Shown piece after piece: positions 374 through 61,656 of a DNA stretch of 64,000 bases. Location: assembly GCA_017515985.1 (NCBI GenBank), contig JAFWDV010000008.1, positions 6,470-70,469 of the forward strand. Direction: 5' to 3'. Source of the DNA: Clostridia bacterium. GTDB lineage: Bacteria; Bacillota; Clostridia; TANB77; CAG-508. The notes below the pieces were generated by a model. That model had not been told where the DNA came from. It did no database searches and worked only from the letters and a program-made list of their open reading frames with translations. The position numbers and the translations under genes are program-made. The stretch's first letter is position 1, and every line of letters begins with the position of its first letter.

Positions 374-439
374 CTATTGCAATCCTCCTGTTCCACCCAA
401 TTCAAATTGTCCTATAATTAGTATTTTGGTAATTTATAC

Positions 440-2631: not shown

Positions 2632-2648
2632 TTAACTCCTCCAATTGT

Positions 2649-3848: not shown

Positions 3849-3849
3849 A

Positions 3850-4962: not shown

Positions 4963-4975
4963 AAATTTATATCTC

Positions 4976-5812
4976 CTAATCTCTCAAAAATTTTTTATAT
5001 ACAATAGCTCTAATTTTATTTGGCATTATTGACACTATTGTCGATGAAAATGCCGTTTTAACAAACTGTTTAAATGTAAAATAACCTTTTTTATAGTATT
5101 TGTATTTAAATCCAAGTATTGGCTTCAAATATTTAATTCCACCACGTCTTTTGAAAAAATCATCACTTGTACGAACATAATACAGAACCTCTTGAAATGT
5201 ATAAAACTTACATTCATTCATTATCATTCTGATATATAAATCAAAATCTTCAGTAAGTGGACTATGTTGATAACTGCCAGCTTTTTTTACTGAATCTACT
5301 TTAAAAATAACTGTAGGTTGTATCATAGGACATCTTCCATGACCAAATTTTATGATTTCATCATTGTATTCTGGCATTGTTCTTGTTGATACAATGTTTC
5401 CAATATCATTTATAAATTCAGCTGCATTAGTACCAATTGCATCAATGTCGCTATGCTCCGATAAGTACTTCATTTGTTTTTCAAATTTTGTCTCTGCAGC
5501 ATAATCATCAGAATCCATAATTGCAGCCCATTTATTTGTACACAATTCAAGACCTTTGTTATATGCATTGCCAGCACCAACGTTTTTTTCAAATTGAAAC
5601 ACTCTAAAAATGTCTTTTTTTTGCTTAATAATAGTACTTATTAAATTTTCTTGTTCTGCCGTCAACTCGCCATCTTTTATAATTATAAACTCGTTCGTTT
5701 GATATGTTTGATTTAGAATACTATTTATGCTTATTTCTAAATCTTTTGGACAAACCTTAGAATATATACTCATAATGACGGAATAATTATCTAACTGATT
5801 CACGAAATCCAT
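4976..5812 (-). CDS. Glycosyltransferase family 2.
   Basis: N-terminal GT-A fold motifs (SVIMSIYSKV ... DSDD). Confidence 0.75.
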   Translation of the reverse strand: MDFVNQLDNYSVIMSIYSKVCPKDLEISINSILNQTYQTNEFIIIKDGELTAEQENLISTIIKQKKDIFRVFQFEKNVGAGNAYNKGLELCTNKWAAIMDSDDYAAETKFEKQMKYLSEHSDIDAIGTNAAEFINDIGNIVSTRTMPEYNDEIIKFGHGRCPMIQPTVIFKVDSVKKAGSYQHSPLTEDFDLYIRMIMNECKFYTFQEVLYYVRTSDDFFKRRGGIKYLKPILGFKYKYYKKGYFTFKQFVKTAFSSTIVSIMPNKIRAIVYKKFLRD

Positions 5813-5888
5813 TTCTCCTTACTTTTTTTATAACCAAACAAAATAAAGGTATGCTCTACCTTTATTTTGTTATCTTTTGTTATTTAAT

Positions 5889-6704
5889 TCAGACTGCTCC
5901 TTCTTTTTTAACAACAGATAATACAGTTTTGAATAAAATCTTGATATCCATCCATACTGACCAGTTTCTTGCATACTTTGTTTCCATATATACACGTTCT
6001 TCATATGAAGTTTCGCTTCTTCCATTTGCAGCCCAATATCCAGTAATTCCTGGTTTAACAGACAAAACATCTTTTTTATATTCACCAAATTTTTCTATCT
6101 CGTCATCTACAACTGCTCTTGGTCCAACTAAAGACATGCTTCCCATTAGGACATTTACAAATTGTGGAAACTCATCTAATGATGTTTTTCTCATAAAGTT
6201 GCCAATTTTTGTTATTCTTGGATCATTTTTTAATTTTCTGTTTTCTTTCCATTCTTTTCTAAGATCTTCGTTGTTGGCTAATATTTCTTTTAGTTTTTCA
6301 TCAGCTCCAACAATCATAGTTCTAAATTTATACATTTTGAACACTTTTCCATCTTTTCCTATTCTTTTTTGAGCATAAAACAATGGTCCATTTTCTTTAT
6401 TTACTAGGTTTAGTATTGCTATAATAACTGTTAATGGAATTAAAAATAAAATTCCAACTAAAGCCCCCATTATATCCATAGTTCTTTTTAATCCAACGTT
6501 TAACGCTTTAACAACAACATTTTCTTTTTTGTATGAATCTGGTGCGACAACAGTTGTATTTGGCTCTATAGCAACTTCATTATATGTTTCTCTTCTGAAT
6601 CTAAATCTTCTTCTTCCTAATGTTGCAACCCCCGTTGCAATGTTTACTATATTTTCTTTTACATTTGCGTTATCATCTTCTATAGTTGTTTCAACTTTAT
6701 CCAT
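5889..6704 (-). CDS. Undecaprenyl-phosphate sugar phosphotransferase (bacterial sugar transferase, WbaP C-terminal / EpsL-like priming enzyme).
   Basis: Motifs KRTMDIMGALVGIL, PLFYAQKRIGKDGKVFKMYKFRTM, DEFPQFVNVLMGSMSLVGPR. Confidence 0.85.
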   Translation of the reverse strand: MDKVETTIEDDNANVKENIVNIATGVATLGRRRFRFRRETYNEVAIEPNTTVVAPDSYKKENVVVKALNVGLKRTMDIMGALVGILFLIPLTVIIAILNLVNKENGPLFYAQKRIGKDGKVFKMYKFRTMIVGADEKLKEILANNEDLRKEWKENRKLKNDPRITKIGNFMRKTSLDEFPQFVNVLMGSMSLVGPRAVVDDEIEKFGEYKKDVLSVKPGITGYWAANGRSETSYEERVYMETKYARNWSVWMDIKILFKTVLSVVKKEGAV

Positions 6705-6957
6705 AATAAATTTCCCCCAATTTTGCTCCCCTTGTCTCGATCTTCAGTGTATATTCAACTTCCTTTTACTTTAGTAATAATACCATTATTATGTAATTTC
6801 CGTTCAATACGCTTGCCCCTTATTCTATCATAAATTGTTTACATATTTCAACAATTTTTCGTAATTTTTACTATTTTTTTAAAACTTTTTCTTCTAATAT
6901 AATAAAATATCAGATTTTCTTATGAAAACATGGCTTATACGTCTATGTATATGCGAA

Positions 6958-6997
6958 AAAAAACATCATATCACAAGCTCATGTGACATGATGTTTT
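6958..6997. terminator. Bidirectional intrinsic terminator (11 bp perfect stem flanked by A and T runs).
   Basis: AAAAACATCAT...ATGATGTTTTT directly downstream of the 7013..7864 gene. Confidence 0.6.
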
Positions 6998-7012
6998 TAT
7001 ATATTTTTTTTC

Positions 7013-7864
7013 TTATCTTATTATCTGTGAATGCTCTTCTAGCAGTTGCATTTTTGATATTCTTCTTTTAGATTCAAATACGATAATCCAAATAATTCCA
7101 ACTATGCATAAAACAATTCCAACAACAAATACATTTTGCAAGAACTCGTTTACAGCAGATATCAAAGCTTCAGAAAATGCTTTACTTAGCACAAGTATAT
7201 TGCTCACTGCAACATTTGTACCAGAATAGCATTTAAGTGCTACGCATAAAGCTCCAGTCGCAACACATATAACGCCTACTACTGGTTTGCAAACTTTGTA
7301 TATTAAAACTAGAGCTAGTACAGAAACAATTGCTAATACAACAGCACCTATTGATGCAATTTTTCTTGCTTTCTTTACATATTTAGCTGCGCCCTTTACT
7401 GTATCATGTGAAAACTCTATGTTTCTTTTATATGTATCAACTATTGCATTTTTGAATTCTTCGATGCCATTTTTATCTTCTTCATCAATTTCAAATCCAT
7501 TTTGCTCTACATAGCTTTGTATATTTTTATCTAACTTAGATTTTATATCTTCGTCATTTATTTTATATTCTTTTCCTTCATACAAGTTATCTACTAATCC
7601 ATTTACATCTTTTTCGATACCATATTTTGTAATAACTCCATCCATTATACTGCTCTCAAAACCAGATTGCATTATGTAGTTATTGCATGCTTCAGTTACA
7701 GTATTATATACTTCTTCATAATAATTTGCCTGAACAAGCTTAGACTTTATGCTGTCTGCTCTTAGTAATGTAACATTTACGTTTGCAAGTAGTATGGTAG
7801 CAGTTAAGAATATAACGAATAGTATTGATAATATGTATGAAATAATTCTTTTCTTTCTAATCAT
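7013..7864 (-). CDS. Membrane protein of unknown function (N-terminal TM, extracytoplasmic coiled region, C-terminal multi-TM).
   Basis: Hydrophobic segments at both ends. First gene of the sortase operon. Confidence 0.5.
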   Translation of the reverse strand: MIRKKRIISYILSILFVIFLTATILLANVNVTLLRADSIKSKLVQANYYEEVYNTVTEACNNYIMQSGFESSIMDGVITKYGIEKDVNGLVDNLYEGKEYKINDEDIKSKLDKNIQSYVEQNGFEIDEEDKNGIEEFKNAIVDTYKRNIEFSHDTVKGAAKYVKKARKIASIGAVVLAIVSVLALVLIYKVCKPVVGVICVATGALCVALKCYSGTNVAVSNILVLSKAFSEALISAVNEFLQNVFVVGIVLCIVGIIWIIVFESKRRISKMQLLEEHSQIIR

Positions 7865-7890
7865 CTATAATCCATTCCCTTCTAACTTCT

Positions 7891-8547
7891 CTATGAAACT
7901 CTTTTAGCATATACAACAAATCTATCTGTTTTATGGCCTAAGCCGTTTACAGGATAGCATGTATATAGCATTAAAATTTCTTCATCATCTTGAACTGGCA
8001 ATTCATCTACATCGTACATATTTACAACTTTTGTGTGATCTACTTTGTATTTGAATTCGCCGTATGTAGTTTCTATTACTATTTCTGCCTTCTTCTTTAT
8101 CTCAGGCAATTTGTATAGAAAAGTTTTTGTATTATGACCCATACATATTACAGAGCCACCTTCACCTGGAAAATATGCTCCACTAGATTGTCCAACACCA
8201 TTTTTTAATATTGATAACTTATCACCGTAATATAGTGGTAAATTAATATCTAATGATTCTATTCTGATATTTCCATATCTTGTTCCATACTCAGGATATT
8301 CTTCTATTTTGCATTTTTCTGGATTAAATTTAATTTCTGACACTACATTACTGTTTGTATTTATTGATACCATATCTAGCACTTCTATTGCCGATTTTAT
8401 TTTATTACCAAATAAAATATTAATGCTTCCAATAATACCAATTACAATAATAGAAGCAACCATTAAATCAATAATAATTGCTTCTATCTTTACCCATATA
8501 GTAGATTTATTGTTAAGCATTAGCTTTTGCTGCATTCTTTCTTGCAA
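7891..8547 (-). CDS. Sortase-family transpeptidase (likely class D/B).
   Basis: N-terminal TM anchor, catalytic-His region (ICMGHNTKT), TLxTC-like cysteine motif (MLYTCYP) and a downstream Arg (DRFVVYAKR). Confidence 0.6.
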   Translation of the reverse strand: MQERMQQKLMLNNKSTIWVKIEAIIIDLMVASIIVIGIIGSINILFGNKIKSAIEVLDMVSINTNSNVVSEIKFNPEKCKIEEYPEYGTRYGNIRIESLDINLPLYYGDKLSILKNGVGQSSGAYFPGEGGSVICMGHNTKTFLYKLPEIKKKAEIVIETTYGEFKYKVDHTKVVNMYDVDELPVQDDEEILMLYTCYPVNGLGHKTDRFVVYAKRVS

Positions 8548-9160
8548 CTATAAATGTAATGCCGGCAACTAACACTACTCCTGCTACAGCTACATATGCG
8601 TAGTTTGTAGAACCTGTTTGAATTAATTTTGACTCAGTTGTTCCTTTACCAGATTTTACTTCAACTCCCCAGAATAAAGAATCGATAAATTCTCCATTTT
8701 CATCGAATATATCTAATCTTTCTTCAGAAGCATCATATTTTACTGTCATATTTAATACAGCTGCTGCATCCTTTACAATTTGAAGTAATTTGTTTTTCTT
8801 TTCTTTAGAGCTTAATTTGCTTGGAGATTTAGCTCCGTCATCATTCATATACTTTATAGCTTCATCCATATATCCCTTAATTTTTGTAGCTTGTTCATCT
8901 GTCATATCTACCTTTTTGAAGAAGCTTTCTAATTTTACCTTATCAGCATCTCTGATTATTATTTTTGTTCCTGTGAAATCTTTCTCTGTGCACATATATT
9001 CTTGTAATTCTGCCTTTGTTACGGCTTGTGATTTTGTTGCGAAAGCAACTAGTGTTAATAGCATTACTGCTAGTATAGCAATTGATTTTTTAACCATACT
9101 CATTTTTATCATCCTTCCTTCTTTAAATGTTTTCTTTTGAAACTGGTTAGATTTTATCAC
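8513..9160 (-). CDS. Secreted protein with a C-terminal cell-wall sorting signal (LIQTGS, hydrophobic stretch, RKNAAKANA); putative sortase substrate. The likely true start is at about 9103 (MSMVKK).
   Basis: Signal peptide ending AFATKSQA. C-terminus KLIQTGSTNYAYVAVAGVVLVAGITFIVARKNAAKANA. An RBS GGAAGGA lies 8 nt before the internal ATG. Confidence 0.6.
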   Translation of the reverse strand: MIKSNQFQKKTFKEGRMIKMSMVKKSIAILAVMLLTLVAFATKSQAVTKAELQEYMCTEKDFTGTKIIIRDADKVKLESFFKKVDMTDEQATKIKGYMDEAIKYMNDDGAKSPSKLSSKEKKNKLLQIVKDAAAVLNMTVKYDASEERLDIFDENGEFIDSLFWGVEVKSGKGTTESKLIQTGSTNYAYVAVAGVVLVAGITFIVARKNAAKANA

Positions 9161-9224
9161 CTCTTTTTTTTAAAATCAACTATATTTTTTTATATTTTTA
9201 TTTTTTTGACTTTTACGGAATATT

Positions 9225-10349
9225 ATGTTAAACTGTATAGTACATTTTAATAAAGGATGTGATTTTTTGAAGAAATTAGAAAATGAAAATAATAAAAATG
9301 TTGCTAATGAAAATACAAAAAAGTCTAAGAAAGTACTAAGAGTAATTTTAAAGATTTTCCTTATTATATTTGTTTCAATAATAATATTTGTACTTACAAC
9401 ATTTTTAACTGCACTTATCTATTTAAATAGTAAATTTGGAAAAATTGAATTTGATAATTTAACAAAAACCGACGTATACATTGATAATGATGTTGATAAA
9501 AGTTTATCAGACTATAGAAATATAGCTATTTTAGGTATTGATGCACGTTCCGATACATTCAGCCGAGGAAACAGAAGTGATTGTATAATGATTGTAAGCA
9601 TCAATAAGAAAAATAAAGATATCAAGATAGCATCAGTTTATAGAGACACTTATCTAGATATTGAAGGTCGTGGGTTGGATAAAGTTACGCACGCATATTC
9701 ATTTGGCGAAGCAAGGCTTGCTATTAACACTTTAAACAGGAACTTAGATTTAAATATTTCTGAATATGTTGCAATTAACTTTGATACAGTTCGTACAGCT
9801 GTTGATGAAGTTGGCGGAGTTACTATTACGCTAGATGCAGATGAAGTAAAATATATAAACGGATATATAAATGCTTTAAATAAACAATTTGGTACATCTT
9901 CTAAGAATATTACAAAGCCAGGTACATATAACTTAGATGGTGTTCAAGCACTAGCATATGGACGAATCAGATATACTGATGGTGGCGACTACAAAAGAAC
10001 AGAGCGTATGAGAGATGTCCTTCTTGCTGTATTTGATAAGGCAAAAAAATCTGACATCGCTACACTTAATAATTTATTAGATACAATGCTACCACATGTT
10101 AGAACTAATATCTCAAAAAATAACATATTAGCTCTTATCCCAAGCATCGCATCGTATAACGTTACTGATAATTTCGGATGGCCATATGAAGTTGATGGAA
10201 AAATTATAAACAAAGTATGGTATGGAGTTCCTGTTAATTTAGAAGCTAATGTATCAAAACTTCACAAGCAATTATTTAATCAAGATAACTATACTCCAAG
10301 TGCAACCGTTCAAACCATAAGTAATGATATTAAAGAAAAGACTAAATAG
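9225..10349 (+). CDS. LytR-CpsA-Psr (LCP) family glycopolymer-to-peptidoglycan transferase.
   Basis: N-terminal TM, then LCP core (IAILGIDARSD ... RSDCIMIVSINKKNKDIKIASVYRDTYLDI). Confidence 0.8.
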   Translation: MLNCIVHFNKGCDFLKKLENENNKNVANENTKKSKKVLRVILKIFLIIFVSIIIFVLTTFLTALIYLNSKFGKIEFDNLTKTDVYIDNDVDKSLSDYRNIAILGIDARSDTFSRGNRSDCIMIVSINKKNKDIKIASVYRDTYLDIEGRGLDKVTHAYSFGEARLAINTLNRNLDLNISEYVAINFDTVRTAVDEVGGVTITLDADEVKYINGYINALNKQFGTSSKNITKPGTYNLDGVQALAYGRIRYTDGGDYKRTERMRDVLLAVFDKAKKSDIATLNNLLDTMLPHVRTNISKNNILALIPSIASYNVTDNFGWPYEVDGKIINKVWYGVPVNLEANVSKLHKQLFNQDNYTPSATVQTISNDIKEKTK

Positions 10350-10387
10350 AACCTATAGAATTTTACATAGCCAATAATAGAAAAAAC

Positions 10388-10428
10388 ACAGCTACAATTT
10401 ATTTGTAACTGTGTTTTTTTATTATATT
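10388..10428. terminator. Bidirectional terminator between the convergent LCP gene and the 645 aa gene.
   Basis: ACACAGCTACAA-ttta-TTGTAACTGTGT stem with flanking A and T runs. Confidence 0.6.
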
Positions 10429-10437
10429 TTCTTTCTA

Positions 10438-12375
10438 TTAACGTCCGTCTGAAAATTCAATATTTGTCATTTTTTCAACACAACTTCTATATGTTTCTCT
10501 ATATTTTTCAGCAAGCTCTTGATCAACTTCAATTTCTGTAATATTTCCAGTATCTAGTATTAGCGTTGGTTTTTTGTGATCAAAACTGAAAAATGTCTTT
10601 GGTAATACATGTGCTTTAACATCATAAGTATCAACCAAATATTGATATGATCTTTCTGATTCTTTGCTTGTACCTTTTTTAAAATGAGATCTTAATGTCA
10701 TAAATAAAGCGTCATATTCCCAATTTGAATAAGCATTTTCCTTAATATACCTTGTATCAAAGTTCATCAAATCAGCGCCCATACTTTCCTCAATAGTAAT
10801 TCCATGTTTTTTAACGTAATATGGTTCAAGCCTCTTGATAATTTCTTTATATTTTGCTGAAGTGAAGTCCATCTTATCGTTTTCTACTCCACCATTTCTT
10901 ATTCTTAAAGCCTCTATGGCATCCAATAATTCAACTGCATTTTGCTGATACTCTCTATATTGCTCTTCAGTGCATCCCTTATCTCCCGCTTCTATATCAG
11001 CTAAATAATTTATTAGTAAATCATCGCGAGTTGTAAATTGATAAGCTTTTAGCTGTTGCTGTGTAAGTACGTCTGCCAATATGTATTCCACAAGCATACA
11101 TGTATCATATCCGCTACCATACATAGTATTTTTTCCTATACAATCTTGGAAAACATCACTTTTGCTTAATAAACCATGCTCATCTAATCTTCTTAAACAC
11201 TCTCTTGTGAATAGCTCATTAGATAATTCCATTGTAAATCTATCTGACTTACCTAATTGGAATACATGCATTAGCTCATGCGCAAATACGTTAACATCAA
11301 CATCGTTAAAATCTCTAACACCATAAAAAATAATTTCATTTGTAGGTCTGCTATACATACCCAATAAATCTGAACCTTCAAGCTTCTGCTCTGAATATGT
11401 AATACGTAGTGTTTCAAGTTTGCTCTTTATTTGGTCTGTGTTCATATAGCAACTATTTTCATCAAATACAAACTTAAATTTCCTTATAAGATCTTTTTCA
11501 TCTTCATTAAGATGAATATTTTTATCCATAGCCTCATTAAGCATATCGCTATGATACTCTTGATTTTTAAGCATAGTTAATAGCTCATCTTTATCTTCTG
11601 GCATTTTATATTCATATGATACAAAAACACCTCTATCATCTAATGCTTTTCTTAAATCTTTTGCCAAAGGTAAACTAGAGTATTGTATGAAAGCTGTACC
11701 TGCATTCAATAAAAGAGCCAATGTAACCAAACCTGAAAATGTAAAAAATTTAACAGTATCTTCTTTTTTAAGATCTTTTCTTGTTTCGTGAAACTTTTTA
11801 CGATTTTCTTCGTACATTTTCTTTTCATCAAAATATTTCTCACGAATAGGATCATCTTTAGCCCAATCAAAAAATTTTATAAAATCTCCACCTTCTGCTT
11901 TACCATGTTTCTTTTTTCCTTTAAAAAGATCTGCCACGTTATTAAAAAGACCTGCCACGTTATCTCTTAAGTTATTATACTTAAAATTCAATAAGGCACA
12001 CTCTTCTTCATTTGGATTAAAGCGTTTTCCATCTTTTATTCTGTATCCAAAGTAAAGCCTTGTGTTAACATCATAATATATCTCAAAATCTTTACCAGCT
12101 ATATTCTCAATTCTTAAAGGATGATTGTTGTTTGGATCTATTTTTATTGCATTATGCACCTTTAAGAAAAGCTCTAATTCTTCTTTAGAATGAGCTGGAA
12201 CAACTTTACCATTTTCATACTTGAAAAAATTTATGCTATTATTTATCACTACAATGCAATATTTTTTATTATCATATTTAAACATTGCAATAGGTTTATA
12301 AATACTATTCATAAAAAATTTCATTCCTTTCCGTTTTCTATATGCAGTGCTGAAAGGTTCAAACCCCTCACACAA
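10438..12375 (-). CDS. Single-pass membrane protein with an extracytoplasmic HExxH zinc-metallopeptidase-like domain; function unknown.
   Basis: TM segment FFTFSGLVTLALLLNAGTAFI at about residue 200. AHELMHVFQ motif with downstream Glu. No recognisable family beyond the motif. Confidence 0.5.
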   Translation of the reverse strand: MCEGFEPFSTAYRKRKGMKFFMNSIYKPIAMFKYDNKKYCIVVINNSINFFKYENGKVVPAHSKEELELFLKVHNAIKIDPNNNHPLRIENIAGKDFEIYYDVNTRLYFGYRIKDGKRFNPNEEECALLNFKYNNLRDNVAGLFNNVADLFKGKKKHGKAEGGDFIKFFDWAKDDPIREKYFDEKKMYEENRKKFHETRKDLKKEDTVKFFTFSGLVTLALLLNAGTAFIQYSSLPLAKDLRKALDDRGVFVSYEYKMPEDKDELLTMLKNQEYHSDMLNEAMDKNIHLNEDEKDLIRKFKFVFDENSCYMNTDQIKSKLETLRITYSEQKLEGSDLLGMYSRPTNEIIFYGVRDFNDVDVNVFAHELMHVFQLGKSDRFTMELSNELFTRECLRRLDEHGLLSKSDVFQDCIGKNTMYGSGYDTCMLVEYILADVLTQQQLKAYQFTTRDDLLINYLADIEAGDKGCTEEQYREYQQNAVELLDAIEALRIRNGGVENDKMDFTSAKYKEIIKRLEPYYVKKHGITIEESMGADLMNFDTRYIKENAYSNWEYDALFMTLRSHFKKGTSKESERSYQYLVDTYDVKAHVLPKTFFSFDHKKPTLILDTGNITEIEVDQELAEKYRETYRSCVEKMTNIEFSDGR

Positions 12376-12413
12376 TATACACTTTTAATTTTACCATATT
12401 ATTAAATAAAATT

Positions 12414-12495
12414 CAAATTTGGACGGAAGAAATTTTGGGGACGGAGGAAAAAATTTCTGCAAAAGAATTTTTTCCTCCGTCCCTAAAATTTTCCA
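12414..12495. repeat. REPIN-like inverted-repeat element (two arms, GGGGACGGAGGAAAAAATT / AATTTTTTCCTCCGTCCC).
   Basis: Perfect 19 bp arms separated by a 12 nt loop (TCTGCAAAAGAA). Same family as 7 other loci in the window. Confidence 0.8.
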
Positions 12496-17339: not shown

Positions 17340-17354
17340 AAAATAAACACCTCA

Positions 17355-17392
17355 ATTAATGTTAACATTTTATAGGCTTTTTGTCAATGTTT
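17355..17392 (-). promoter_or_regulatory. Second copy of the tyrS-type promoter/palindrome, driving the 802 aa gene.
   Basis: Minus strand reads ATTGACAAAAAGCCTATAAAATGTTAACATT, identical to the 14876-14911 copy except for a 6 nt spacer block. Confidence 0.5.
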
Positions 17393-17449
17393 GTAAGCGT
17401 TTAAAGCCAAATTACTGCCCGATTTTTTTGCTACTTTGCTTTCGAAATG

Positions 17450-17478
17450 TTGACATTTATGTAAATTCATGCTATAAT
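17450..17478 (+). promoter_or_regulatory. Perfect consensus sigma-70/sigma-A promoter (TTGACA, 17 nt spacer, TATAAT) for the GC-rich island gene.
   Basis: TTGACA at 17450-17455 and TATAAT at 17473-17478. GGAGG RBS at 17513-17517, 7 nt before the ATG. Confidence 0.6.
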
Positions 17479-22953: not shown

Positions 22954-23100
22954 AGAAATTTTGGGGACGGAGGAAAAAATTTCTGCAAAACGCCAAATAA
23001 TTTTAAAAACAGAGCAAAAAATTTTTGCAAAAAGCCAAAATTTAAGGACGTAACAAAAAAATCCCATTCCGGAATTTTTTTGCTCCGTCCCCAGAATTTC
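22954..23100. repeat. REPIN-like element with a long (about 95 nt) loop and a degenerate right arm.
   Basis: Left arm TTTTGGGGACGGAGGAAAAAATTTCTGCAAAA. Right arm TTTTTTTGCTCCGTCCCCAGAATTT. Confidence 0.75.
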
Positions 23101-24123
23101 CTACCAAGCAAATAATCCTTCAAATAACCCGCTCTGATTATCCAAATATTCCTCATTATTATTGACGTTAATATTTAAGTTAGTATCATTATTCTTAATT
23201 CTATCATCGCCAACACAATCACATTCCATTTGAGCAAGAGCTCTTAATTTCTTATCGCCTTCGCGATATTTTTGTTTATCCTCTTCAGAGAAATTTGCCT
23301 TAATATTCAAAATCTCTTTATAAAACTCTGTTTTCTTTGCATATTTCCAAAAATACTCTTGATACAATACATCGTCAAAATGCCATGGTTTAAATGCTAA
23401 ATTGTAGTGAATTATATTAATTCTTGACTTATCAATATTATCACCGCTTACAGGCATCTTGTTCCAAGTTTTTTGAAGTAAAGTAACTCTTCCTTTGCAT
23501 AATCTATTCATATAATCTTGATCTTGCGCTACTGAGAACTTTATAGTTCCTAATAGGTATAAGAATTTATCTTTGAAACTAAAGTTTCTTAGCTCTTTTA
23601 AGTTTAATAGTAAAATACCAGCATTGAAATAATTTCTGTAATCTGCAACACCAACAACTTTCTCAGAATAATTTCTAAACACTTCAATTGTCTGTATTAC
23701 ATCATCTGGTGCAGCTGCTAGTAAATTATCTCCTATATTCATTTTAAATAGTTTTGTTATGTCTTTTAAAACTATTATATCGCTATCTAAATATATAGCT
23801 CTATCATATTCTGGATATAAATCTGGTATCAATAATCTATAGTATGTAGTATTTGAGAAATAGTCTCTTGTATATAACTGATGACTAATTTCTTTTATTT
23901 TTGGATTTACATCTACAAATTCAATACTTACTCCATCAGACTCATACTTTTTAATTTTTTCCATATTTGTTTTTGTAACAGTTGTATAAAGTACTTTAAC
24001 TAAGTATTTATACTCCTTTGATGAATTCTCGATAAGTGATTTTAAAGCTACACCTAAAAATGGTATATAATTATCATCTACAGCGAAAAATATGGGAACT
24101 TCGCCTTTAAATTTTGTATTCAT
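23101..24123 (-). CDS. Glycosyltransferase family 8.
   Basis: PIFFAVDDNYIPFLGVALKSL and DXD region YLDSDIIVL. Confidence 0.75.
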   Translation of the reverse strand: MNTKFKGEVPIFFAVDDNYIPFLGVALKSLIENSSKEYKYLVKVLYTTVTKTNMEKIKKYESDGVSIEFVDVNPKIKEISHQLYTRDYFSNTTYYRLLIPDLYPEYDRAIYLDSDIIVLKDITKLFKMNIGDNLLAAAPDDVIQTIEVFRNYSEKVVGVADYRNYFNAGILLLNLKELRNFSFKDKFLYLLGTIKFSVAQDQDYMNRLCKGRVTLLQKTWNKMPVSGDNIDKSRINIIHYNLAFKPWHFDDVLYQEYFWKYAKKTEFYKEILNIKANFSEEDKQKYREGDKKLRALAQMECDCVGDDRIKNNDTNLNINVNNNEEYLDNQSGLFEGLFAW

Positions 24124-39924: not shown

Positions 39925-40015
39925 TCAAGGAAATTTTGGGGACGGAGGAAAAAATTTTTCTTAATCTTTGAAATAACCTACAAATGAACTTTTTTCCTCC
40001 GTCCCCAAAATTTCT
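39925..40015. repeat. REPIN-like element (two perfect arms, 35 nt loop) in the pyrC leader.
   Basis: AAATTTTGGGGACGGAGGAAAAAATTTTT ... AACTTTTTTCCTCCGTCCCCAAAATTTCTGCAAAA. Confidence 0.8.
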
Positions 40016-41910: not shown

Positions 41911-41940
41911 GAAAATTTGGGGACGGAGGAAAAAATTTCT
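41911..41940. repeat. Single REP arm (forward orientation) flanking the RAYT gene.
   Basis: GAAAATTTGGGGACGGAGGAAAAAATTTCT. Confidence 0.75.
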
Positions 41941-41969
41941 CATTTAACCTTTTACTTGAATTGAATTTC

Positions 41970-42719
41970 TTATTCGTTAACAATTGTATTAATCCATTTC
42001 CAAGTCATTCCAAATTTTTCTCCAATATCTTTTTTTCTAATACATGTAGACCTCAGTAACGTCTTAATTATATGGCACAGATATTTTTTTTCAGAAAAAA
42101 TACATTCAATTCCAATTTTATTCTTTTTTATAAAATTGCAAATATATTCATCCATTATTGTATTCTTATCAATATTTTCATCTATAAAATCACTACAATT
42201 ACTGAAATTCTCAAGTATTGCAAAGTTTTTTCCATCAAAGAGCCTTCCAAATATTTTATTTTGAGTAATTCCAGAATTACTCATATAATCATTGTATGAT
42301 GAATATATATACTCTTGTGGCAAAGCTACCATCCCAGCCTTTACTGGATTTAAATGAATATAATTAATGCATTGATACAGATATTTTTTATCCGTAATGG
42401 CCTGACTTTTAAATCTGTCCCTAAAAACATATCCAACACGTTTTTCTATATAATTATAATATTGTGCGTATTCAGTATTAACACACTTCATAAACTTCGA
42501 CAATTTACACATATCCTCTGAGTAAATAAGTATATGCACATGATTTGACATTATGCAATATGCAATAATTTGTATATCAAACTTAAACATGTTTTCCTTT
42601 AACAAAAATAAATATTTTTCTTTTTGCTTATCTAAATTAAAAAGCATCTCTTTATTAATGCCTTGACACATAACATGAAAAAAAGATGCATTTAATCTTT
42701 CTCTAGCTATTCTTGACAT
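41970..42719 (-). mobile_element. IS200/IS605-family HuH tyrosine (Y1) transposase; candidate REP-associated tyrosine transposase (RAYT).
   Basis: HuH motif SNHVHILI, catalytic-Tyr region YIHLNPVKAG, and GYVFRDRFKSQ. Flanked on each side by an inverted single REP arm. Confidence 0.7.
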
Positions 42720-42860
42720 TTTATCATCCTTTCTGTTAATAATTTGCCCCCATATAACTATTTAAGATTAATGCATCTTTCCCCTATAAAATTATGCATA
42801 TATCATAATTATCTTTTGTTTAATTGAAATTTATGACTTTGTTCATATAATTATTTTATC

Positions 42861-42890
42861 GAAAATTTTTTCCTCCGTCCCTATTTTTTC
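42861..42890. repeat. Single REP arm (reverse orientation) flanking the RAYT gene; overlaps the metG 3' end.
   Basis: GAAAATTTTTTCCTCCGTCCCTATTTTTT. Confidence 0.75.
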
Positions 42891-44646: not shown

Positions 44647-47600
44647 CTATCCTATACTATCTCCCAATAAAACTGTATATTTATCTTGTGGTATTATTAA
44701 ATCTTCTTCTTCATATTCATCTAATGAAGCAATAATATGGATATTTTGTAAATTTTCAAAGCTTTCAAATATTTTTAAATCTTCTTCTTCGATTCTATCC
44801 ATTCCATCCTCCATATTCATCAAAATATAAATATCGGTTTTAATCATAGGACTTATACCTTTTACATCGTATAATAATCTCCTAGGTATGTACATTGGAA
44901 GACCAGAATCATTACATTCTCTATATTCTTTTAGCTCAATTGTTAACAAATCATCATCTGCTCTTACATATAAATCTTTCCAATAATTCTTTGCAATTTC
45001 ATATAGCTCTCTATTGGTAAACTTAAGTGTTGGAAATTCCTCTTCAAAATCATCTGGAGGTATTAGGTCTTCACTAAAATCAACATCTATCATATCATAT
45101 CCAGACATTCTTCCTACTGTATATTTAGCAGAATAATCTCCTTGTGTAACCAATGAATAATACTTTTCTGGGACCATTATATATGAATTATTTTCTAAAC
45201 CATAATCTCTTTCTTCAAGTCTGGATTGTAATACATATATATCACTAACTAAATAAAAATCCTTTGTCTCTTTTGAAATTGAATTACCAAATGTATTAGC
45301 TACAACTATATTATCCTTATCAATTGTATTAGAATTCTTTAACCTATTCATATATGGATTATATCTTACAATTATTCCATCATTGTCTAGATTTCTATCA
45401 ATTTTAAATGTTATATTTGTTGTAACTGTATCGTAGCTCCAATATGATACCACCGTATCTTCGTCTACAGGAATTATAAATGATCTTTTATTTATTTTGT
45501 TTCCATTTACTTTTACATTAACTGAACCAATTTCCTTAGAGTTTATATAGTTAGCTAAATTCATTTCTAATCCGCTCTCATCAGGAATTGCAATTACTAT
45601 ATTTTCTTCCTTGGTATCCTTTTCCACGATGATAGATGGGCCGTCTTCAGTCATTCTCTCCCCATCATAAGAATCAATATACAATGTCCATAAAACCTTA
45701 TCAGCAAATTTATCTATGTTTTTTATGTTATTTTCCTTTAAGTTAACTTCTGCAACTGATTTTACATTGAACAAGTCAAAATCATCGCTCAAATCACAGT
45801 CAATTAATGTTATGAATACAAGATTCATATCGCTTAAGTCACCTGTCAAATTATAATTATGAGACAAATTGATATTCTTTAAACCTACTATTTCTTTAAG
45901 AGAAGAAATATCGCCTAACTCACAATTCTCAAGAAAAATACATGATGCATTTTTCAATTGTCCAAGATTTGTAATACCTTTATTATTAGATAAACTATAT
46001 GTAACTCCAAAGAATTCACTGTCGACTTCCATAAGCTCCATTTCTCTTCTAATATCATCCTCTGTTATTGATTCAATGTATATTTCCCCAGCATCTTTGA
46101 TATTACATCCGTCTAAAACAATATAAAAAGTATTTTTTAACTTTCTAATTGGTTCAAAATTACTAATTTCTGAGTTGTTTGATAAATCTATGCTATATAT
46201 TGTTGCTTCTTCCAATCCAGAAATATCTTTTAATTTATTGTTAGATAAATTGATATAATCCAAATTTTCCATCTTCAGAATATCCTTTAGTGGATCTACG
46301 GATTCAATTCCATTATCACTTAAATCTAGATAACCTAGATTTTTAAGATTTGCTATTTCACTATAATCCTCAATATAATTTCCTTTCAAATCTAATGAAA
46401 ATATATCTTTATATTTATCACTATTCTCCATAGAAGTAATTCCACAATAAGCTAATGATAAATTGTCTTCAATCTTCAGCTCTCCATATCCAGTAATACA
46501 ATCATTTCTATCTAATTTTAGTGTACTAAACTTAACATCTTTTAATGATGAGATGTCTTTTATTTCGTTATTTGATAAATCAAGACTTACACCATCATTT
46601 AAGTATTTCTCTAAGCCATCAATACTTTTTATATTGTTACCTGATAGATTAACTTTAAATGTTGCATTTTTAAAGAATATTTCAAATTCATCTATTTTTT
46701 CCATATTAAAGTTTCTGTCCGATAAATCCAAATACTTACTGATAGTTTCTTTTCTTAAATATTCATTTCCATCTATACTAACTATATCACTTCCATAGTA
46801 ATCTCTTGCAAAATCACGTGCGCTTTTTCCTAATTTATCTATATCAATTAAATCAGATAGATTATTTACTGATACAATTCCAGACAAACCACTATGTACT
46901 CTACAGTCTTCATATGAAATATAAAAGTATCCGCCATCTCCCCAAAATGTACCCCAAGAATTTAATGCAATATATGCACCATCTTTTTCTGGCACGTTTC
47001 CTTTTGGAGATTTAAAGTTGTTTCTTGAATAGTTATCATCCCATCCAACTATTGAAACAGCATGTCCACCTCTACTACCTTCTATATCCTTATAATCTTT
47101 CATATAAAGGTTCATATCATAATCAGGAGCTATTATTTCGGTATATATCGATCCATAATTCATAATGTGCGTTTTCACTGCAGTTTGCAAATCTTTAAAC
47201 TTCCTGTCATACTCTTCTTGAGACATCTCTTCATATCTGTAGAATGTAGGAAATTCGGCATACTTTGTTATATATATATTCTCTTTTGGTGTATGGTAAA
47301 AAGTATTATATTCATAGTCTTCATACACATTTAAAGGTACTTCCTCTTCTAGTACATATCCTTTATTTTGTTCATTATACTGTTTTATATTGGCGAAATA
47401 ACCACCACTATTCTCATCTCTACCTCCAACATTCAATAACTTTGATGTCATATAATCTATGTGACTTTCTGATATGTCATAATACTCGCCTTTTGTTAAT
47501 GCAAGGTTAGTTTCCAATGATTTGACAGAAGCAAAATCCCAACATAAACCAAATTGTCCTTGATTTTCAACTTTAACATTTATCTTGTCTTTCAAATTAA

Positions 47601-48024
47601 ACTTTTTGGGCAATACTTCCTTATTATCATCTTCTTTTTTATCTTCCTCTAAAACATATTCTATGCCTAAATCTTCTTTCTGATCTTCCTTAATTGTTTC
47701 AAGTTCGCTAAACTCAATCTTCTCTTTTCTTGGTATAGCTTCTACTTTTTTCTTTTCTTCATCAGATAGCTTTAAGTATTCTTTATATGCCTCAGAATAA
47801 TTCTCCTCTTCACTGAACTCATCATCAGACTCTACTTTCTTAATTTTTTCAGCTATCTCTTTTCTCTCTGCAACCGTTTTCTCGATTTTAGCTTTCTCAG
47901 CCGTTCTTTCCCTTGCCTTTATTGTATTTGCAATATTATTTCCAACTAGCAAACCAAGCATTACGGCAACAATTGCGCCGACAATAATAATAACAATTTT
48001 CCTTTTAGTAAAAAAATTTCTCAT
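44647..48024 (-). CDS. Membrane-anchored papain-family (C1) cysteine peptidase fused to leucine-rich repeats (1125 aa).
   Basis: N-terminal signal-anchor. C1 catalytic triad motifs QGQFGLCWDFAS (Cys), GHAVSIVGWDD (His), NSWGTFWGDGGYFYIS (Asn). Multiple LDLSNNxIxDIS LRRs. Confidence 0.75.
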   Translation of the reverse strand: MRNFFTKRKIVIIIVGAIVAVMLGLLVGNNIANTIKARERTAEKAKIEKTVAERKEIAEKIKKVESDDEFSEEENYSEAYKEYLKLSDEEKKKVEAIPRKEKIEFSELETIKEDQKEDLGIEYVLEEDKKEDDNKEVLPKKFNLKDKINVKVENQGQFGLCWDFASVKSLETNLALTKGEYYDISESHIDYMTSKLLNVGGRDENSGGYFANIKQYNEQNKGYVLEEEVPLNVYEDYEYNTFYHTPKENIYITKYAEFPTFYRYEEMSQEEYDRKFKDLQTAVKTHIMNYGSIYTEIIAPDYDMNLYMKDYKDIEGSRGGHAVSIVGWDDNYSRNNFKSPKGNVPEKDGAYIALNSWGTFWGDGGYFYISYEDCRVHSGLSGIVSVNNLSDLIDIDKLGKSARDFARDYYGSDIVSIDGNEYLRKETISKYLDLSDRNFNMEKIDEFEIFFKNATFKVNLSGNNIKSIDGLEKYLNDGVSLDLSNNEIKDISSLKDVKFSTLKLDRNDCITGYGELKIEDNLSLAYCGITSMENSDKYKDIFSLDLKGNYIEDYSEIANLKNLGYLDLSDNGIESVDPLKDILKMENLDYINLSNNKLKDISGLEEATIYSIDLSNNSEISNFEPIRKLKNTFYIVLDGCNIKDAGEIYIESITEDDIRREMELMEVDSEFFGVTYSLSNNKGITNLGQLKNASCIFLENCELGDISSLKEIVGLKNINLSHNYNLTGDLSDMNLVFITLIDCDLSDDFDLFNVKSVAEVNLKENNIKNIDKFADKVLWTLYIDSYDGERMTEDGPSIIVEKDTKEENIVIAIPDESGLEMNLANYINSKEIGSVNVKVNGNKINKRSFIIPVDEDTVVSYWSYDTVTTNITFKIDRNLDNDGIIVRYNPYMNRLKNSNTIDKDNIVVANTFGNSISKETKDFYLVSDIYVLQSRLEERDYGLENNSYIMVPEKYYSLVTQGDYSAKYTVGRMSGYDMIDVDFSEDLIPPDDFEEEFPTLKFTNRELYEIAKNYWKDLYVRADDDLLTIELKEYRECNDSGLPMYIPRRLLYDVKGISPMIKTDIYILMNMEDGMDRIEEEDLKIFESFENLQNIHIIASLDEYEEEDLIIPQDKYTVLLGDSIG

Positions 48025-48224: not shown

Positions 48225-48250
48225 AATTTTGAGTCCGTCCCTATTTTCTT
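48225..48250. repeat. Degenerate single REP arm (GAGTCCGTCCC variant).
   Basis: AAATTTTGAGTCCGTCCCTATTTTC. Confidence 0.45.
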
Positions 48251-51200
48251 ACTGTGTATTTTGCTAAGAAGTTACCTTGTTTAATGTATGAATAGTATTT
48301 TTCAGCTACCTCTATATACGTCCTGCTTCCTGTACCTAGTTTCTTGTTGATGACTCTTGCAGGAACCGTATAGATATCTTTGCTCTCTAGCTCAAAATCA
48401 TTAGTTTCTTTAAAAACTCCGTTGCCATACAAATTTGCAGCTCTAATGTTATTCTTATCAATACTATCTGTGCTCTGTAATCTTGATAGATATGGATTAT
48501 ACATAACCTCTATTCCGTCGTTTTTCATATTTTTATCAATAACAAACTTAATTTTAACATTTCCTAAATCACGTGCATAGTAAGAAATAGTTGTATTGCT
48601 ATTAATTCTAATAGGTTTAATTATATTATCAGATTTCCCATTAATTTTTATATCTGATACATTGGTAATTTGATTTACCCTCGTATACTCCATAAAATTC
48701 ATATATAAATTATTTTCATCTGGAATTTTAATTTCTATTATATCTTCCTTTACTTCAGGTGTATTCTTTACTGAAATATATACTCCGTTTTTCGTGTATA
48801 GAGCTCCATCATAAGAATCCATAAACAATGTTCTAGTTACTTTTTCTACAAAATTTTCTATATCTGTTATATCGTTTTTGCATATATCCAAATACGTAAC
48901 AGAATCAACGTTAAACGCATCGAAATCATTTTTTAGTCCACAATCATTTACTGTGATTTTAGATAAGCTCTTGCCACTTAAATCGCCAGTTAAATTATGA
49001 TTATTTGATAGATTTATCTCTTTTAGATATTTGATTTGTTTAATCTCAGAAATATCTCCTAAGTCACAGTTTTCTACAGTAATTGTAGCAGCATTTTTTA
49101 ATGCTCCAAGATTTGATATTCCTTTATTCTCTGACAATATGTAATTGATTCCCAAACTTACACCATAGCCATTTCCTTCAGCTTTTTCAATGTCTTCCTC
49201 AGTAACTGACTCGATTAAGACATCTTTCGCATTCTTGATATCGCAGCTCTTTAGATATATTGTATATATTTTCTTAGATTTTCTTAATGGTTCATAACTT
49301 TCAATTTCAGTATTATATGATAAATCAACGATTGAAGCTTTTGAATTCTCAAGTCCAGAAATATTTTTCAATTTATTTTGAGATAAATCTATCTGAGTAA
49401 GTCCGTCTTTTTCAAGGATAACCATCACTGTATCAAGTGAATTTAATCCACAATTGCGAAGCTCTACGTAGTATAGCTCACTTAATTTTACAACCTCGCT
49501 ATAATCAGCAATGCTATTTCCACTTAAATTTAAAGACTTAAGATTTTTAAGATTCTCTGAGCTTCTAAAAGATGTAACAGCACAATTCTCTATTGATAAT
49601 CTGATTGATATATTTAAATTTTCGTATCCTCTTACACCATTATTTCCATCTAAAGTAAGCACGCTTACACTTACGTCTTTTAAGCAAGATACATCTTTTA
49701 TGTTGTTATTAGAAAGATTAATATTTACATTCTCTTTCTTAATCAACTTTTCAATTCCATCTATATTACTTAATTTATTATTTGATAAATTTATAGTATT
49801 TGCTTTATTAATAAAAGCCTTAAACTCATTAATATCATCTATATCCCTATTTGATAAATCAAGATTATTCGAAATAACATCTGGCCATAAATACTCTTCT
49901 CCATCAATTGTAACGATTTCATTGCTATATGTCTCGATGGCGTATTTACGCGCCTTCTCTCCTAATTTGCTAACATTTATCAAATCGGAATTTTTATTTA
50001 TTGATACTACCCCTGACATCTCTTTGTGAACTTTAAAATCTTCATAAGATATGTAGAAATATCCTCCATCTGCCCATTTTTCTCCCCAAGAATTTAGTGC
50101 TATGTATGCTCCATCTTTTTCTGGCACATTTCCATTTGGAGATTTGAAATTATCTCTAGAATAATTATCGTCCCATCCAACAATAGAAATTGAATGTGAT
50201 CCATCATTATCCTTTAAATCTTCTTTGTCTTTTGTATAATGATTTTCTCCATAATAAGGAGTGGCAATTGAAGCATATACTGAGCCATATTTCATAATAT
50301 GTGTTTTCACTGCTGTTTGTAGCTCTTTAAATCTATTTTCATAATCCTCTTGGGTGTTTTTATTTACAGTTGGAAAATCAACATACTTTGTTATATATAA
50401 ACTTTCTAACGGCGTATTATAAAAAGTATTGTATTCATAATCGTCGTATACATTTAAGGGAACTTCTTCCTCTGTAGCAAATCCTCTGTATGCTTGATTG
50501 TAGTTCTTCATATCTGAAAAGTTACCGCCACAATTTGCTTCTCTTTTACTTAATGTCATTAAATTTGAAGCCATATAATCAACATGACTTTCAGATAAAT
50601 CATATTTTTTTCCTTGCGTTAAAGCTAGATTCGTTTCAACACACTTTATAGCAGCAAAATCCCAGCATAAACCAAAGCCACCTTGATCTTCAACCTTAAT
50701 ACTAATCTCATCCTTTAAGTTGAATCTTTCTGGTAAAACTATATCGTCGTCCTGCTCTTGCTCGCTCTCTTCTTCGCTACTTTTATCCTCGCCTTTTTTA
50801 TCGTCGCTCTCTTTTTGCTCATCATCTTTCTTATCTTCTTGTTTGATGTCTTCCTTCTGATCTTCTATTATATTCTCAAGCTCACTGTAATCGATATTTT
50901 CTTTTCTAGGAACAGCTTCAACTTTTGCCTTGTCTTCGTCAGACAAATTTAAGTATTCTTCATATTCTTGTGAGTAATTGTTAGTATTACTTACACTAGC
51001 AGTTTTAACCTTTTCAATTTTCTTAGCTATTTCTACACGCTCTTGAACTTGATCCTCAATACTACCGTTTTCGATTATTTCATTACTTGTTTTTTTATCT
51101 TCCTCTTCTTTTGGTTTATTTTCAGGTGTATTCTTTTTAGCAATCTCTTTTTTCTCATTCTTCTGCTCTTCAACTACGCTTTTTTCAGCTTGTTTTTCTT

Positions 51201-51312
51201 TTGCCTTCATTGTGTTTGCAATATTATTTCCAACTACAACACTAATAAAAACTGTAATTGCTGCAACAATTATAAATACTATGACCTTATTCTTTGAAAA
51301 AAACTTCCCCAT
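48241..51312 (-). CDS. Membrane-anchored papain-family (C1) cysteine peptidase fused to LRRs (paralogue, about 1023 aa). The likely start is MGKFFSKN.
   Basis: QGGFGLCWDFAA, GSHSISIVGWDD, NSWGEKWADGGYFYIS. LRRs INLSNNKLSNIDG etc. Acidic Lys/Glu/Asp-rich linker. Confidence 0.75.
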   Translation of the reverse strand: MGKFFSKNKVIVFIIVAAITVFISVVVGNNIANTMKAKEKQAEKSVVEEQKNEKKEIAKKNTPENKPKEEEDKKTSNEIIENGSIEDQVQERVEIAKKIEKVKTASVSNTNNYSQEYEEYLNLSDEDKAKVEAVPRKENIDYSELENIIEDQKEDIKQEDKKDDEQKESDDKKGEDKSSEEESEQEQDDDIVLPERFNLKDEISIKVEDQGGFGLCWDFAAIKCVETNLALTQGKKYDLSESHVDYMASNLMTLSKREANCGGNFSDMKNYNQAYRGFATEEEVPLNVYDDYEYNTFYNTPLESLYITKYVDFPTVNKNTQEDYENRFKELQTAVKTHIMKYGSVYASIATPYYGENHYTKDKEDLKDNDGSHSISIVGWDDNYSRDNFKSPNGNVPEKDGAYIALNSWGEKWADGGYFYISYEDFKVHKEMSGVVSINKNSDLINVSKLGEKARKYAIETYSNEIVTIDGEEYLWPDVISNNLDLSNRDIDDINEFKAFINKANTINLSNNKLSNIDGIEKLIKKENVNINLSNNNIKDVSCLKDVSVSVLTLDGNNGVRGYENLNISIRLSIENCAVTSFRSSENLKNLKSLNLSGNSIADYSEVVKLSELYYVELRNCGLNSLDTVMVILEKDGLTQIDLSQNKLKNISGLENSKASIVDLSYNTEIESYEPLRKSKKIYTIYLKSCDIKNAKDVLIESVTEEDIEKAEGNGYGVSLGINYILSENKGISNLGALKNAATITVENCDLGDISEIKQIKYLKEINLSNNHNLTGDLSGKSLSKITVNDCGLKNDFDAFNVDSVTYLDICKNDITDIENFVEKVTRTLFMDSYDGALYTKNGVYISVKNTPEVKEDIIEIKIPDENNLYMNFMEYTRVNQITNVSDIKINGKSDNIIKPIRINSNTTISYYARDLGNVKIKFVIDKNMKNDGIEVMYNPYLSRLQSTDSIDKNNIRAANLYGNGVFKETNDFELESKDIYTVPARVINKKLGTGSRTYIEVAEKYYSYIKQGNFLAKYTVRK

Positions 51313-51479
51313 TAAAATAACCCCTCTCAAAAGTAACCTGAATAGACTACTTTTACGTAAAAAAAATACTCTTCAATTATACAACAAAATGCCATATTTT
51401 TCAACAATTACCAAAAAAGATGAACTCTTATTCCAGAATTCATCTTTTCTATCTTATTTATTTTATCACTAGCCAAGTC

Positions 51480-55284: not shown

Positions 55285-55336
55285 AGTGACAAAAAGAGCG
55301 GCACTCATTCATCTGAGTGCTGCTCTTTTATTATTA
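55285..55336. repeat. Direct-repeat copy 1 (terminator-like hairpin) bounding the 4-gene cassette.
   Basis: AGTGACAAAAAGAGCGGCACTCATTCATCTGAGTGCTGCTCTTTTATTAT. It matches 58076-58126 at 47 of 50 positions. Confidence 0.8.
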
Positions 55337-58075: not shown

Positions 58076-58126
58076 TAGTGACAAAAAGAGCGGCCCCCAT
58101 TCATCTGAGTGCTGCTCTTTTATTAT
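58076..58126. repeat. Direct-repeat copy 2 bounding the 4-gene cassette.
   Basis: AGTGACAAAAAGAGCGGCCCCCATTCATCTGAGTGCTGCTCTTTTATTAT. Confidence 0.8.
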
Positions 58127-60950: not shown

Positions 60951-61017
60951 TCAGAAATTTAAGGACGGAGGAAAACTTCCTAAATGGAAATTTTTTCCTC
61001 CGTCCCCAAAATTTTTA
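60951..61017. repeat. REPIN-like element (variant left arm AAGGACGGAGG, perfect right arm).
   Basis: GAAATTTAAGGACGGAGGAAAACTT ... GAAATTTTTTCCTCCGTCCCCAAAATTTTT. Confidence 0.75.
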
Positions 61018-61656
61018 TTTTTCAGTCATATTTTTGGCTGTTTTCTTTCTAATTCTTTGTATTGCGTTATCTATTGATTTCACTGGAGAATCAAGTTTTT
61101 CAGCAATAACTGTATATGAACTGCCATTCACAAGTTCAGTAAGAACCTGCCTTTCAAATGGACTTAATGATTTTTCTATTACATCTTCCACATTCTCATA
61201 ATACTCTTTTTTTGTAATCGTATCTAGTGGATCTTCTATTACATTAGCATCAAAAACATCATAAATACTTGTATCGTCATCATCATCGTCATATGCAGAC
61301 ATATTCAAGGACAAATATGAATTAAGTGGCATATGCTTTTGCCTGTTTGAACTTTTGATTGCCGTTATTAGCTGTCTTTCAACGCACAAGTTGGCAAATG
61401 ATTTAAATGAGTTTTGCTTTTCTCCATCGTAATTTTGAATAGCCTTATATAAACCTATTAAGCCCTCTTGCATTATATCTTCTTTTTCTGCTCCAACAAT
61501 GAAGTATCTACTAACTTTCATATTAACAATTTCTTTGTATTTGTCTAACAGAAAATTTAGAGCTTCATTGTCACCAGATTTAACTTTTTTGATTAAATCC
61601 TCATCACTATCATTTGTATAGTTAGATACATTAGCATTTGTATAATCGAATTTCAT
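61015..61656 (-). CDS. sigH: RNA polymerase sigma-H (Spo0H-type ECF-like sigma factor).
   Basis: EDIMQEGLIGLYKAIQNY...FKSFANLCVERQLITAIKSSNRQKHMPLNSYLSLN closely parallels the B. subtilis SigH region 2/3. Confidence 0.65.
   Translation of the reverse strand: MKFDYTNANVSNYTNDSDEDLIKKVKSGDNEALNFLLDKYKEIVNMKVSRYFIVGAEKEDIMQEGLIGLYKAIQNYDGEKQNSFKSFANLCVERQLITAIKSSNRQKHMPLNSYLSLNMSAYDDDDDDTSIYDVFDANVIEDPLDTITKKEYYENVEDVIEKSLSPFERQVLTELVNGSSYTVIAEKLDSPVKSIDNAIQRIRKKTAKNMTEK

Follow-up and report, generated by a model that had tools for sequence, protein, structure and literature searches.

Inverted G-box repeats around a single-copy Y1 tyrosine enzyme gene and dispersed in a Clostridia genome: a probable domesticated TIRtron

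REPIN-RAYT systems are the best-known mobile DNA that persists through vertical inheritance. To our knowledge, they have been studied almost only in Proteobacteria and with enzymes of RAYT Groups 2 and 3, and we know of no substrate or function for the largest RAYT class, which goes under the names Group 1, subclass 2.1 and TIRYT.

TIRtrons and their TIRYT enzymes were described by Di Nocera, De Gregorio and Rocco (2013, BMC Genomics 14:522; PMC3733652). TIRYTs correspond to TnpAY1 subclass 2.1 (Quentin et al., 2018, BMC Genomics 19:475) and to RAYT Group 1 (Bertels, Gallie and Rainey, 2017), an equivalence that is given in PMC6006769. The TIRs of TIRYTs carry a GGGGWSAS motif, and TIR families that occur as dimers or clusters have already been described; in the same study, TIRYTs were rated as 'less productive' than RAYTs (Di Nocera et al., 2013). 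The 16-mer flanking Group 1 genes was found to occur about 12 times per replicon (Bertels et al., 2017), and no REP-like sequences were reported near subclass 2.1 genes (Quentin et al., 2018; PMC6006769). Here, we describe a locus in the window, the 64-kb stretch of clostridial DNA that was analysed (G+C content 31%), in which an intact gene for an enzyme of this class lies between inverted copies of a G-rich repeat that also occurs as dispersed inverted pairs. New here is the dense doublet population tied to the TIRYT class in a Firmicute; the class itself and TIRs with a G-box were already known.

The Y1 enzyme gene and the class of its protein

The Y1 HUH tyrosine enzyme is encoded on the minus strand, between metG and a P-loop kinase-like ORF, and is flanked by two copies of the repeat, referred to as arms. 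The features of the locus are as follows:

41911..41938, plus strand: downstream arm, GAAAATTTGGGGACGGAGGAAAAAATTT, 31 nt past the stop codon of the Y1 gene
41970..42719, minus strand: Y1 enzyme gene of the TIRYT / TnpAY1 subclass 2.1 / RAYT Group 1 type, 249 aa
41973-42194, minus strand: DnaA-domain-IV-like HTH, residues 176-249
42285-42719, minus strand: catalytic domain, residues 1 to about 145, with His60, His62, Tyr120 and Asn124
42720..42862, minus strand: leader from the upstream arm to the ATG, with two conserved motifs and then a Shine-Dalgarno-like AAAGGA
42740-42751, minus strand: leader motif GGGGGCAAATTA, from an alignment of nine lineages
42771-42788, minus strand: leader motif ATAGGGGAAAGATGCA, from an alignment of nine lineages
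42863..42890, minus strand: upstream arm, AGGGACGGAGGAAAAAATTTT in its G-rich reading, the outer end of which overlaps the stop codon of metG (MetRS)

The first-pass annotation had reported a 249-aa ORF with HUH and tyrosine motifs between inverted arms, and both were recovered at these positions. The ORF is intact and contains the motifs SNHVHILI (HUH, with His60 and His62) and YIHLNPVKAG (with the catalytic Tyr120), and the two arms are complementary at 25 of 28 bases (89%). The metG stop codon, a TAG at 42881-42883, lies inside the upstream arm.

Residues His60, His62, Tyr120 and Asn124 are invariant among 36 aligned sequences with 40-62% identity to the window protein. The protein is matched by the Pfam model Y1_Tnp and scores 68 bits with the NCBIfam RAYT model and 18 bits with the IS200 model, both below the respective cut-offs of 80 and 55 bits; for all 36 aligned homologues, the RAYT model gave the higher score of the two. 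When a profile of the family was compared with the PDB, E. coli TnpAREP (RayT/YafM, PDB 4ER8) was the closest solved structure (E = 2.9e-5), and ISDra2 TnpA was matched with an E-value of 0.019. As reference TIRYT and RAYT sequences, we used Additional file 5 of Di Nocera et al. (2013; PMC3733652). In phmmer comparisons, the window protein reached 52-93 bits with the 13 long TIRYTs and 14-24 bits with five classical RAYTs that have GTAG REPs. A neighbour-joining tree placed the long TIRYTs together with the clostridial clade, apart from the classical RAYTs (support 100 of 100 bootstraps). One of the reference TIRYTs, 'dau 2153', presumably comes from Desulforudis audaxviator, going by its KEGG organism code.

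Like the TIRYTs, the window protein is a long Y1 HUH protein with a catalytic tyrosine, RAYT-type motifs (QxGxN..., AYCxMxNHxH, xxxxxRF/YKS, YIxxNPVxA and SSY) and a C-terminal HTH-type extension. In TIRYTs, this extension is a Bac_DnaA_C-, HTH_23- or HTH_28-like domain, and the window protein has a domain of this kind. Unlike the proteobacterial TIRYTs, the clostridial proteins end in a short DnaA-domain-IV-like HTH, for which hhalign detected no sequence homology to the proteobacterial TIRYT tail (probability 0.1%). Clustered at 50% identity (E <= 1e-30), the clostridial proteins make up about 194 clusters and form a separate, fast-evolving clade.

In the leader, the motif AAAGATG(T/C)A is followed 15-20 nt downstream by GGGGGCAAATTA, and this arrangement is kept in seven lineages. 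To us, GGGGGCAAATTA resembles GGnnAnAHTR, the -10 element of the forespore sigma-F type. RNAalifold predicted no conserved secondary structure for the leader (0 pairs), and no conserved hairpin was found in the 3' flank of the gene.

The repeat unit and its dispersed copies

The repeat unit is roughly 28-30 nt long and reads GAAATTTT-GGGGACGGAGGA-AAAATTTC, in which the A/T stem GAAATTTT/AAAATTTC encloses the G-rich box GGGGACGGAGGA. Aligned on its core, it takes the form (A)GAAATTTT-G-GGGACGGAGGA-A-AAAATTTC(T), that is, a T-run, a G-box and an A-run with complementary outer parts. The 19-mer GGGGACGGAGGAAAAAATT occurs nine times in the 64-kb window when up to three mismatches are allowed, well above the 0.02 occurrences expected by chance (0 of 100 shuffles reached nine), and a tenth, degenerate arm was identified with a looser search. 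The box of the window, GGGGACGG, agrees with the published GGGGWSAS motif at seven of eight positions, and exact matches to this motif are present at two of the homologue loci described below (GGGGACAC in L058 and GGGGACAG in L059). A GTAG tag was found beside none of the 13 arms that were identified in the window and its extensions. No Rfam family was detected anywhere in the window, and a literature search with the G-box string returned only unrelated primer sequences.

Some single arms can be folded as a stem with the G-box in a 12-13-nt loop; others fold poorly, the gene-flanking arms of the window included. In distant lineages the stem letters differ and the pairing is kept, as in L057 (AAAGATGATTTT/AAAATCATCTTT), L059 (GAACTTTT/AAAAGTTC) and L060 (AAGGACA/TGTCCTT). 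For eight hand-picked arms, 96% of the cells were paired and seven of 12 pairs had compensatory changes, a result that was reached by none of 500 shuffles. Across 48 unselected arms, the effect was modest but significant, with a mean perfect stem of 4.75 bp as compared to 4.26 bp with swapped partners (P about 0.0005). We had considered that every arm forms its own stem-loop. This idea was softened: it fits the consensus and the distant lineages, yet a perfect stem of at least 7 bp is present in 15 of the 48 unselected arms and about two thirds have a shorter one.

Away from the Y1 gene, the window contains the following copies, for which no strand is assigned:

12430..12491: inverted doublet with a 10-nt spacer; ssDNA fold of -27.1 kcal/mol, z -7.7
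22955..23100: composite site with outer inverted arms and 78 nt between them; fold of -28.8 kcal/mol, z -4.6
22996-23032 and about 23040-23065: degenerate inner units of the composite site, in the same orientation as its left arm
39930..40014: inverted doublet with a 29-nt spacer; fold of -28.2 kcal/mol, z -7.5
60962..61014: inverted doublet with one degenerate arm (AAGGACGGAGGAAAAC); fold of -17.8 kcal/mol, z -5.3

These four sites with their eight arms are all inverted pairs that are intergenic or touch a stop codon; the outer ends of the composite site and of the doublet at 60962..61014 abut the stop codons of the ORFs 23101..24123 and 61015..61656, respectively. The first-pass annotation had put the number of further intergenic sites in the window at six or more, which is too many, and had described them as paired inverted repeats, which applies to all four. 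When 17.9 kb more of the same genome beyond the window ends were included, 13 arms at seven sites were found in 81.9 kb. The right-hand extension contributed one doublet and one singleton, and no arms were found in the left-hand extension of 9.6 kb (L061). Doublets account for five of the six dispersed sites in these 82 kb, with start-to-start distances of 31-114 nt. Each of the ten close inverted pairs runs G-arm, spacer, C-arm, which is also the layout of the gene-flanking arms. The spacers, 10-78 nt long, share neither sequence nor length. Due to their layout and their long ssDNA hairpins, the doublets resemble REPINs or MITEs.

The arms are not spread evenly: window positions 1-12400 and the 9.6 kb to the left of them (L061), about 22 kb, contain none, and all 13 lie in the remaining roughly 60 kb. 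The armless DNA is a tightly packed polysaccharide/glycosyltransferase gene cluster. At 0.16 arms per kb, extrapolation would give hundreds of copies per genome. Nine occurrences of the commonest flanking 16-mer fall within 82 kb, a density that, if typical of the genome, would exceed that of the classical systems. An 18-mer exact-word scan of one genome per species, this species not among them, gave 34 single matches, of which about half were chance matches to high-GC genomes, and a 19-mer scan of JGI metagenomes, again without this species, gave five; such exact-word scans returned one to two matches per contig, and the relatives carry core variants.

Partial extra units precede the arms at two places, 12438 and, outside the window, 66266. 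For two arms, a strong promoter-like site (TTGACA, 17 nt, TACAAT or TATTAT; 11 of 12 positions matching) begins immediately at the outer end, at 41910-41882 and 39928-39900, both on the minus strand. The first of these, TTGACA-17-TACAAT, abuts the downstream arm of the Y1 gene and putatively serves the next gene, the P-loop kinase-like ORF. The window also holds two giant paralogous genes in tandem on the minus strand (44647-48024 and 48241-51330; 1125 and 1029 aa), which have Peptidase_C1 and LRR marks and share blocks that are 72-76% identical at the nucleotide level. Two direct copies of a 50-nt hairpin with a T-run behind it, 96% identical to each other, lie at 55285-55334 and 58077-58126; these bracket a 2.8-kb block of four minus-strand ORFs and look like a bidirectional terminator that is present twice.

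The locus in related lineages

Inverted arms with a GGGAC core surround the Y1 gene at nine of nine homologue loci from other uncultured Clostridia (arm length 19-49 nt), and one copy of the Y1 gene is present in every locus examined. The homologues P0003, P0004, P0006 and P0008 (50-56% identical) are located beside metG, each with inverted arms, and the metG-linked slot is kept in five lineages. In three of them (window, L042 and L050), the stop codon of metG is overlapped by the upstream arm, and this arm has therefore been in place since those lineages split. The fixed metG-linked position points to vertical inheritance of the Y1 gene. The homologues L057-L060 (42-48% identical, tblastn) are located in other housekeeping contexts and have perfect or near-perfect inverted arms of 26-49 nt, again with a GGGAC core.

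The base at core position 10 is G in 12 arms and C in one arm of the window genome, G in three arms of L042, and C in seven arms of L044, six of L050 and three of L046. This position tracks the lineage, with flanking and dispersed copies having the same base. When the syntenic pyr region is compared between the window, L042 and L050, the intergenic gaps that hold dispersed copies are not the same, which indicates that the dispersed copies turn over, whereas the gene-flanking arms stay put. We found no filled-versus-empty sites among strains.

Among the metG-linked loci (window, L042, L044, L046 and L050), the Y1 proteins are 45-56% identical (catalytic domain 57-66%, HTH 25-43%). For the same lineages, the neighbouring MetRS proteins are 80-93% identical and the products of the two downstream genes 67-95%. 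A Y1 protein that is this diverged beside conserved neighbours suggests either that it evolves very fast or that alleles have been replaced at a fixed locus.

The order of the genes and the form of the arms vary in some of the loci. In L046-L049 (9855-10860), the Y1 gene and its arms lie upstream of metG instead of downstream (order PGM, Y1 gene, metG), and the arms are unlike each other (GGAGC versus GGGGC...GAT). At 17345-17460, 7 kb from its Y1 gene, L060 carries another inverted pair, which has a GGGGAC core and other flanks, and a nested four-arm palindrome (++--) is present in L029 at 3150-3245.

A proposed domesticated TIRtron and competing readings

We propose that the locus is a domesticated TIRtron, the enzyme of which makes or maintains a REPIN-like population of repeats, and we assign this reading a probability of roughly 0.7. 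As in TIRtrons, a single-copy chromosomal gene lies between TIRs, the box of which resembles GGGG(A/T)(C/G)A(C/G), and the nearest analogue of the locus is the S. maltophilia ORF 1152 family with its self-complementary, closely paired repeats. It differs from published TIRtrons in its 7/8 box, GGGGACGG, and in its high repeat density, with 13 arms in 82 kb. According to the proposed mechanism, the enzyme would recognize the G-box unit, with the HTH binding to the duplex box and/or the catalytic domain to the ssDNA stem-loop. The putative recognition sequence is GGGGACGGAGG, and cleavage would take place at the foot of the stem. By analogy with the action of E. coli TnpAREP on REPs, ssDNA would be nicked and rejoined through a 5'-phosphotyrosine link to Tyr120. 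This activity would create, move or maintain the dispersed units, and the Y1 gene itself would no longer be mobile.

Several observations run counter to the TIRtron reading. The G-box is almost unchanged where the enzymes are 45-56% identical, which would also fit a motif that is imposed by the host. The heterogeneous spacers are unlike those of a population copied from one REPIN master, the single arms at the gene fold poorly, the box agrees with the published motif at only seven of eight positions, and the 68 bits of the protein lie below the RAYT cut-off of 80 bits.

The best-surviving competitor, although we consider it unlikely, is that the arms are host cis-elements, either a protein-binding box or a hairpin that structures the mRNA or the chromosome, and that the Y1-HTH protein is a domesticated user of these elements and not their mover. 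The near-invariant core of the G-box would be expected for such elements, as would the DnaA-domain-IV-like, duplex-DNA-binding fold of the protein and the fixed arm positions relative to gene ends and -35 boxes. This would also be in accordance with the view of Bertels and Rainey, who regard Group 1 RAYTs as co-opted single-copy genes. However, the dispersed copies lie in differing intergenic gaps of syntenic regions in related species, and some copies are degenerate or nested in clusters; both features are typical of repeats with turnover. The doublets also copy the exact layout of the gene-flanking arms. In addition, all catalytic residues are invariant, which favours DNA cleavage over binding alone.

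The first-pass annotation had viewed the locus as a candidate REPIN-RAYT system, and a gene between inverted repeats, dispersed doublets and E. coli TnpAREP as the nearest solved structure do recall the classical enterobacterial or pseudomonad type, with its Group 2 or 3 enzyme and GTAG REPs. The repeats are over-represented, extragenic and mostly arranged as inverted doublets within about 130 bp, and the enzyme gene is single-copy and vertically inherited, as in that type. Nevertheless, we regard this identity as very improbable. Compared with E. coli TnpAREP/BIME and Pseudomonas REPIN-RAYT (Groups 2 and 3), the window protein scores 14-24 bits, as opposed to 52-93 bits for the TIRYTs, falls on the other side of the 100/100 tree split and has an extra C-terminal HTH. 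The spacers of the doublets are heterogeneous, the repeats lack GTAG, and the unit is a conserved G-rich box in A/T runs, whereas the REPs of E. coli and Pseudomonas are GC-rich imperfect palindromes. The emphasis that had been placed on a Firmicute instance was also overstated, as Group 1 RAYTs have already been reported in Clostridia (Bertels et al., 2017) and 'dau 2153' is among the TIRYTs of Di Nocera et al. (2013). The earlier interpretation is partly supported: it was right in spirit and wrong on the class, the number of sites and the degree of novelty.

It is even harder to see the locus as an ordinary, currently mobile insertion sequence of the IS200/IS605 family that has terminal inverted repeats by chance. 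The Pfam Y1_Tnp match and the inverted repeats that bracket the gene in the manner of an insertion sequence would fit, and the protein shares with the TnpA enzymes of IS608 and ISDra2 the HUH Y1 superfamily and, by analogy, a presumed ssDNA chemistry on hairpins. However, the 18 bits obtained with the IS200 model are far from its 55-bit cut-off, there is no tnpB partner, and the gene is present in a single copy per locus at the same metG position in five species-level lineages with MetRS proteins that are 80-93% identical. IS200/IS605 elements have distinct left- and right-end subterminal hairpins on the same strand, whereas the arms of the window are inverted copies of one unit, and the search for IS-type hairpins in the leader and the 3' flank, which had been named at the outset as a possible objection, revealed none that is conserved. 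Only 22 of 72,556 plasmid records matched the enzyme, all at less than 40% identity, as did one phage record at 30% identity; judging from these matches, the Y1 gene appears to be essentially absent from plasmids and phages.

That the doublets are rho-independent terminators, alike by convergence and unrelated to the gene, as the first-pass annotation had also allowed for, is hardly credible: they are GC-containing hairpins directly past stop codons, but no T-run follows the stem, the terminator scan calls none of them, a separate terminator-like hairpin lies at 40053-40031 beside the site at 39930-40014, and in nine lineages the Y1 gene has this sequence on both sides.

Returning to the TIRtron reading, we speculate, tentatively and with more doubt than belief, that in Gram-positive bacteria the clostridial enzymes of subclass 2.1 / Group 1 may keep up a dense REPIN-like population that is inherited vertically. 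Its deeply conserved G-box, GGGGAC(G/A)G, would be read by the DnaA-domain-IV-like HTH, and the enzyme, the HTH above all, may evolve several times faster than its housekeeping neighbours, as in a long enzyme-repeat conflict or co-adaptation. The locus combines a conserved G-box of 11-12 nt, dense doublets and a fixed chromosomal slot with an enzyme that has an intact catalytic centre and a DnaA-like HTH. This combination provides concrete substrates for a first biochemical test of the TIRYT class, and with it the phenomenon is extended to uncultured Clostridia of the gut.
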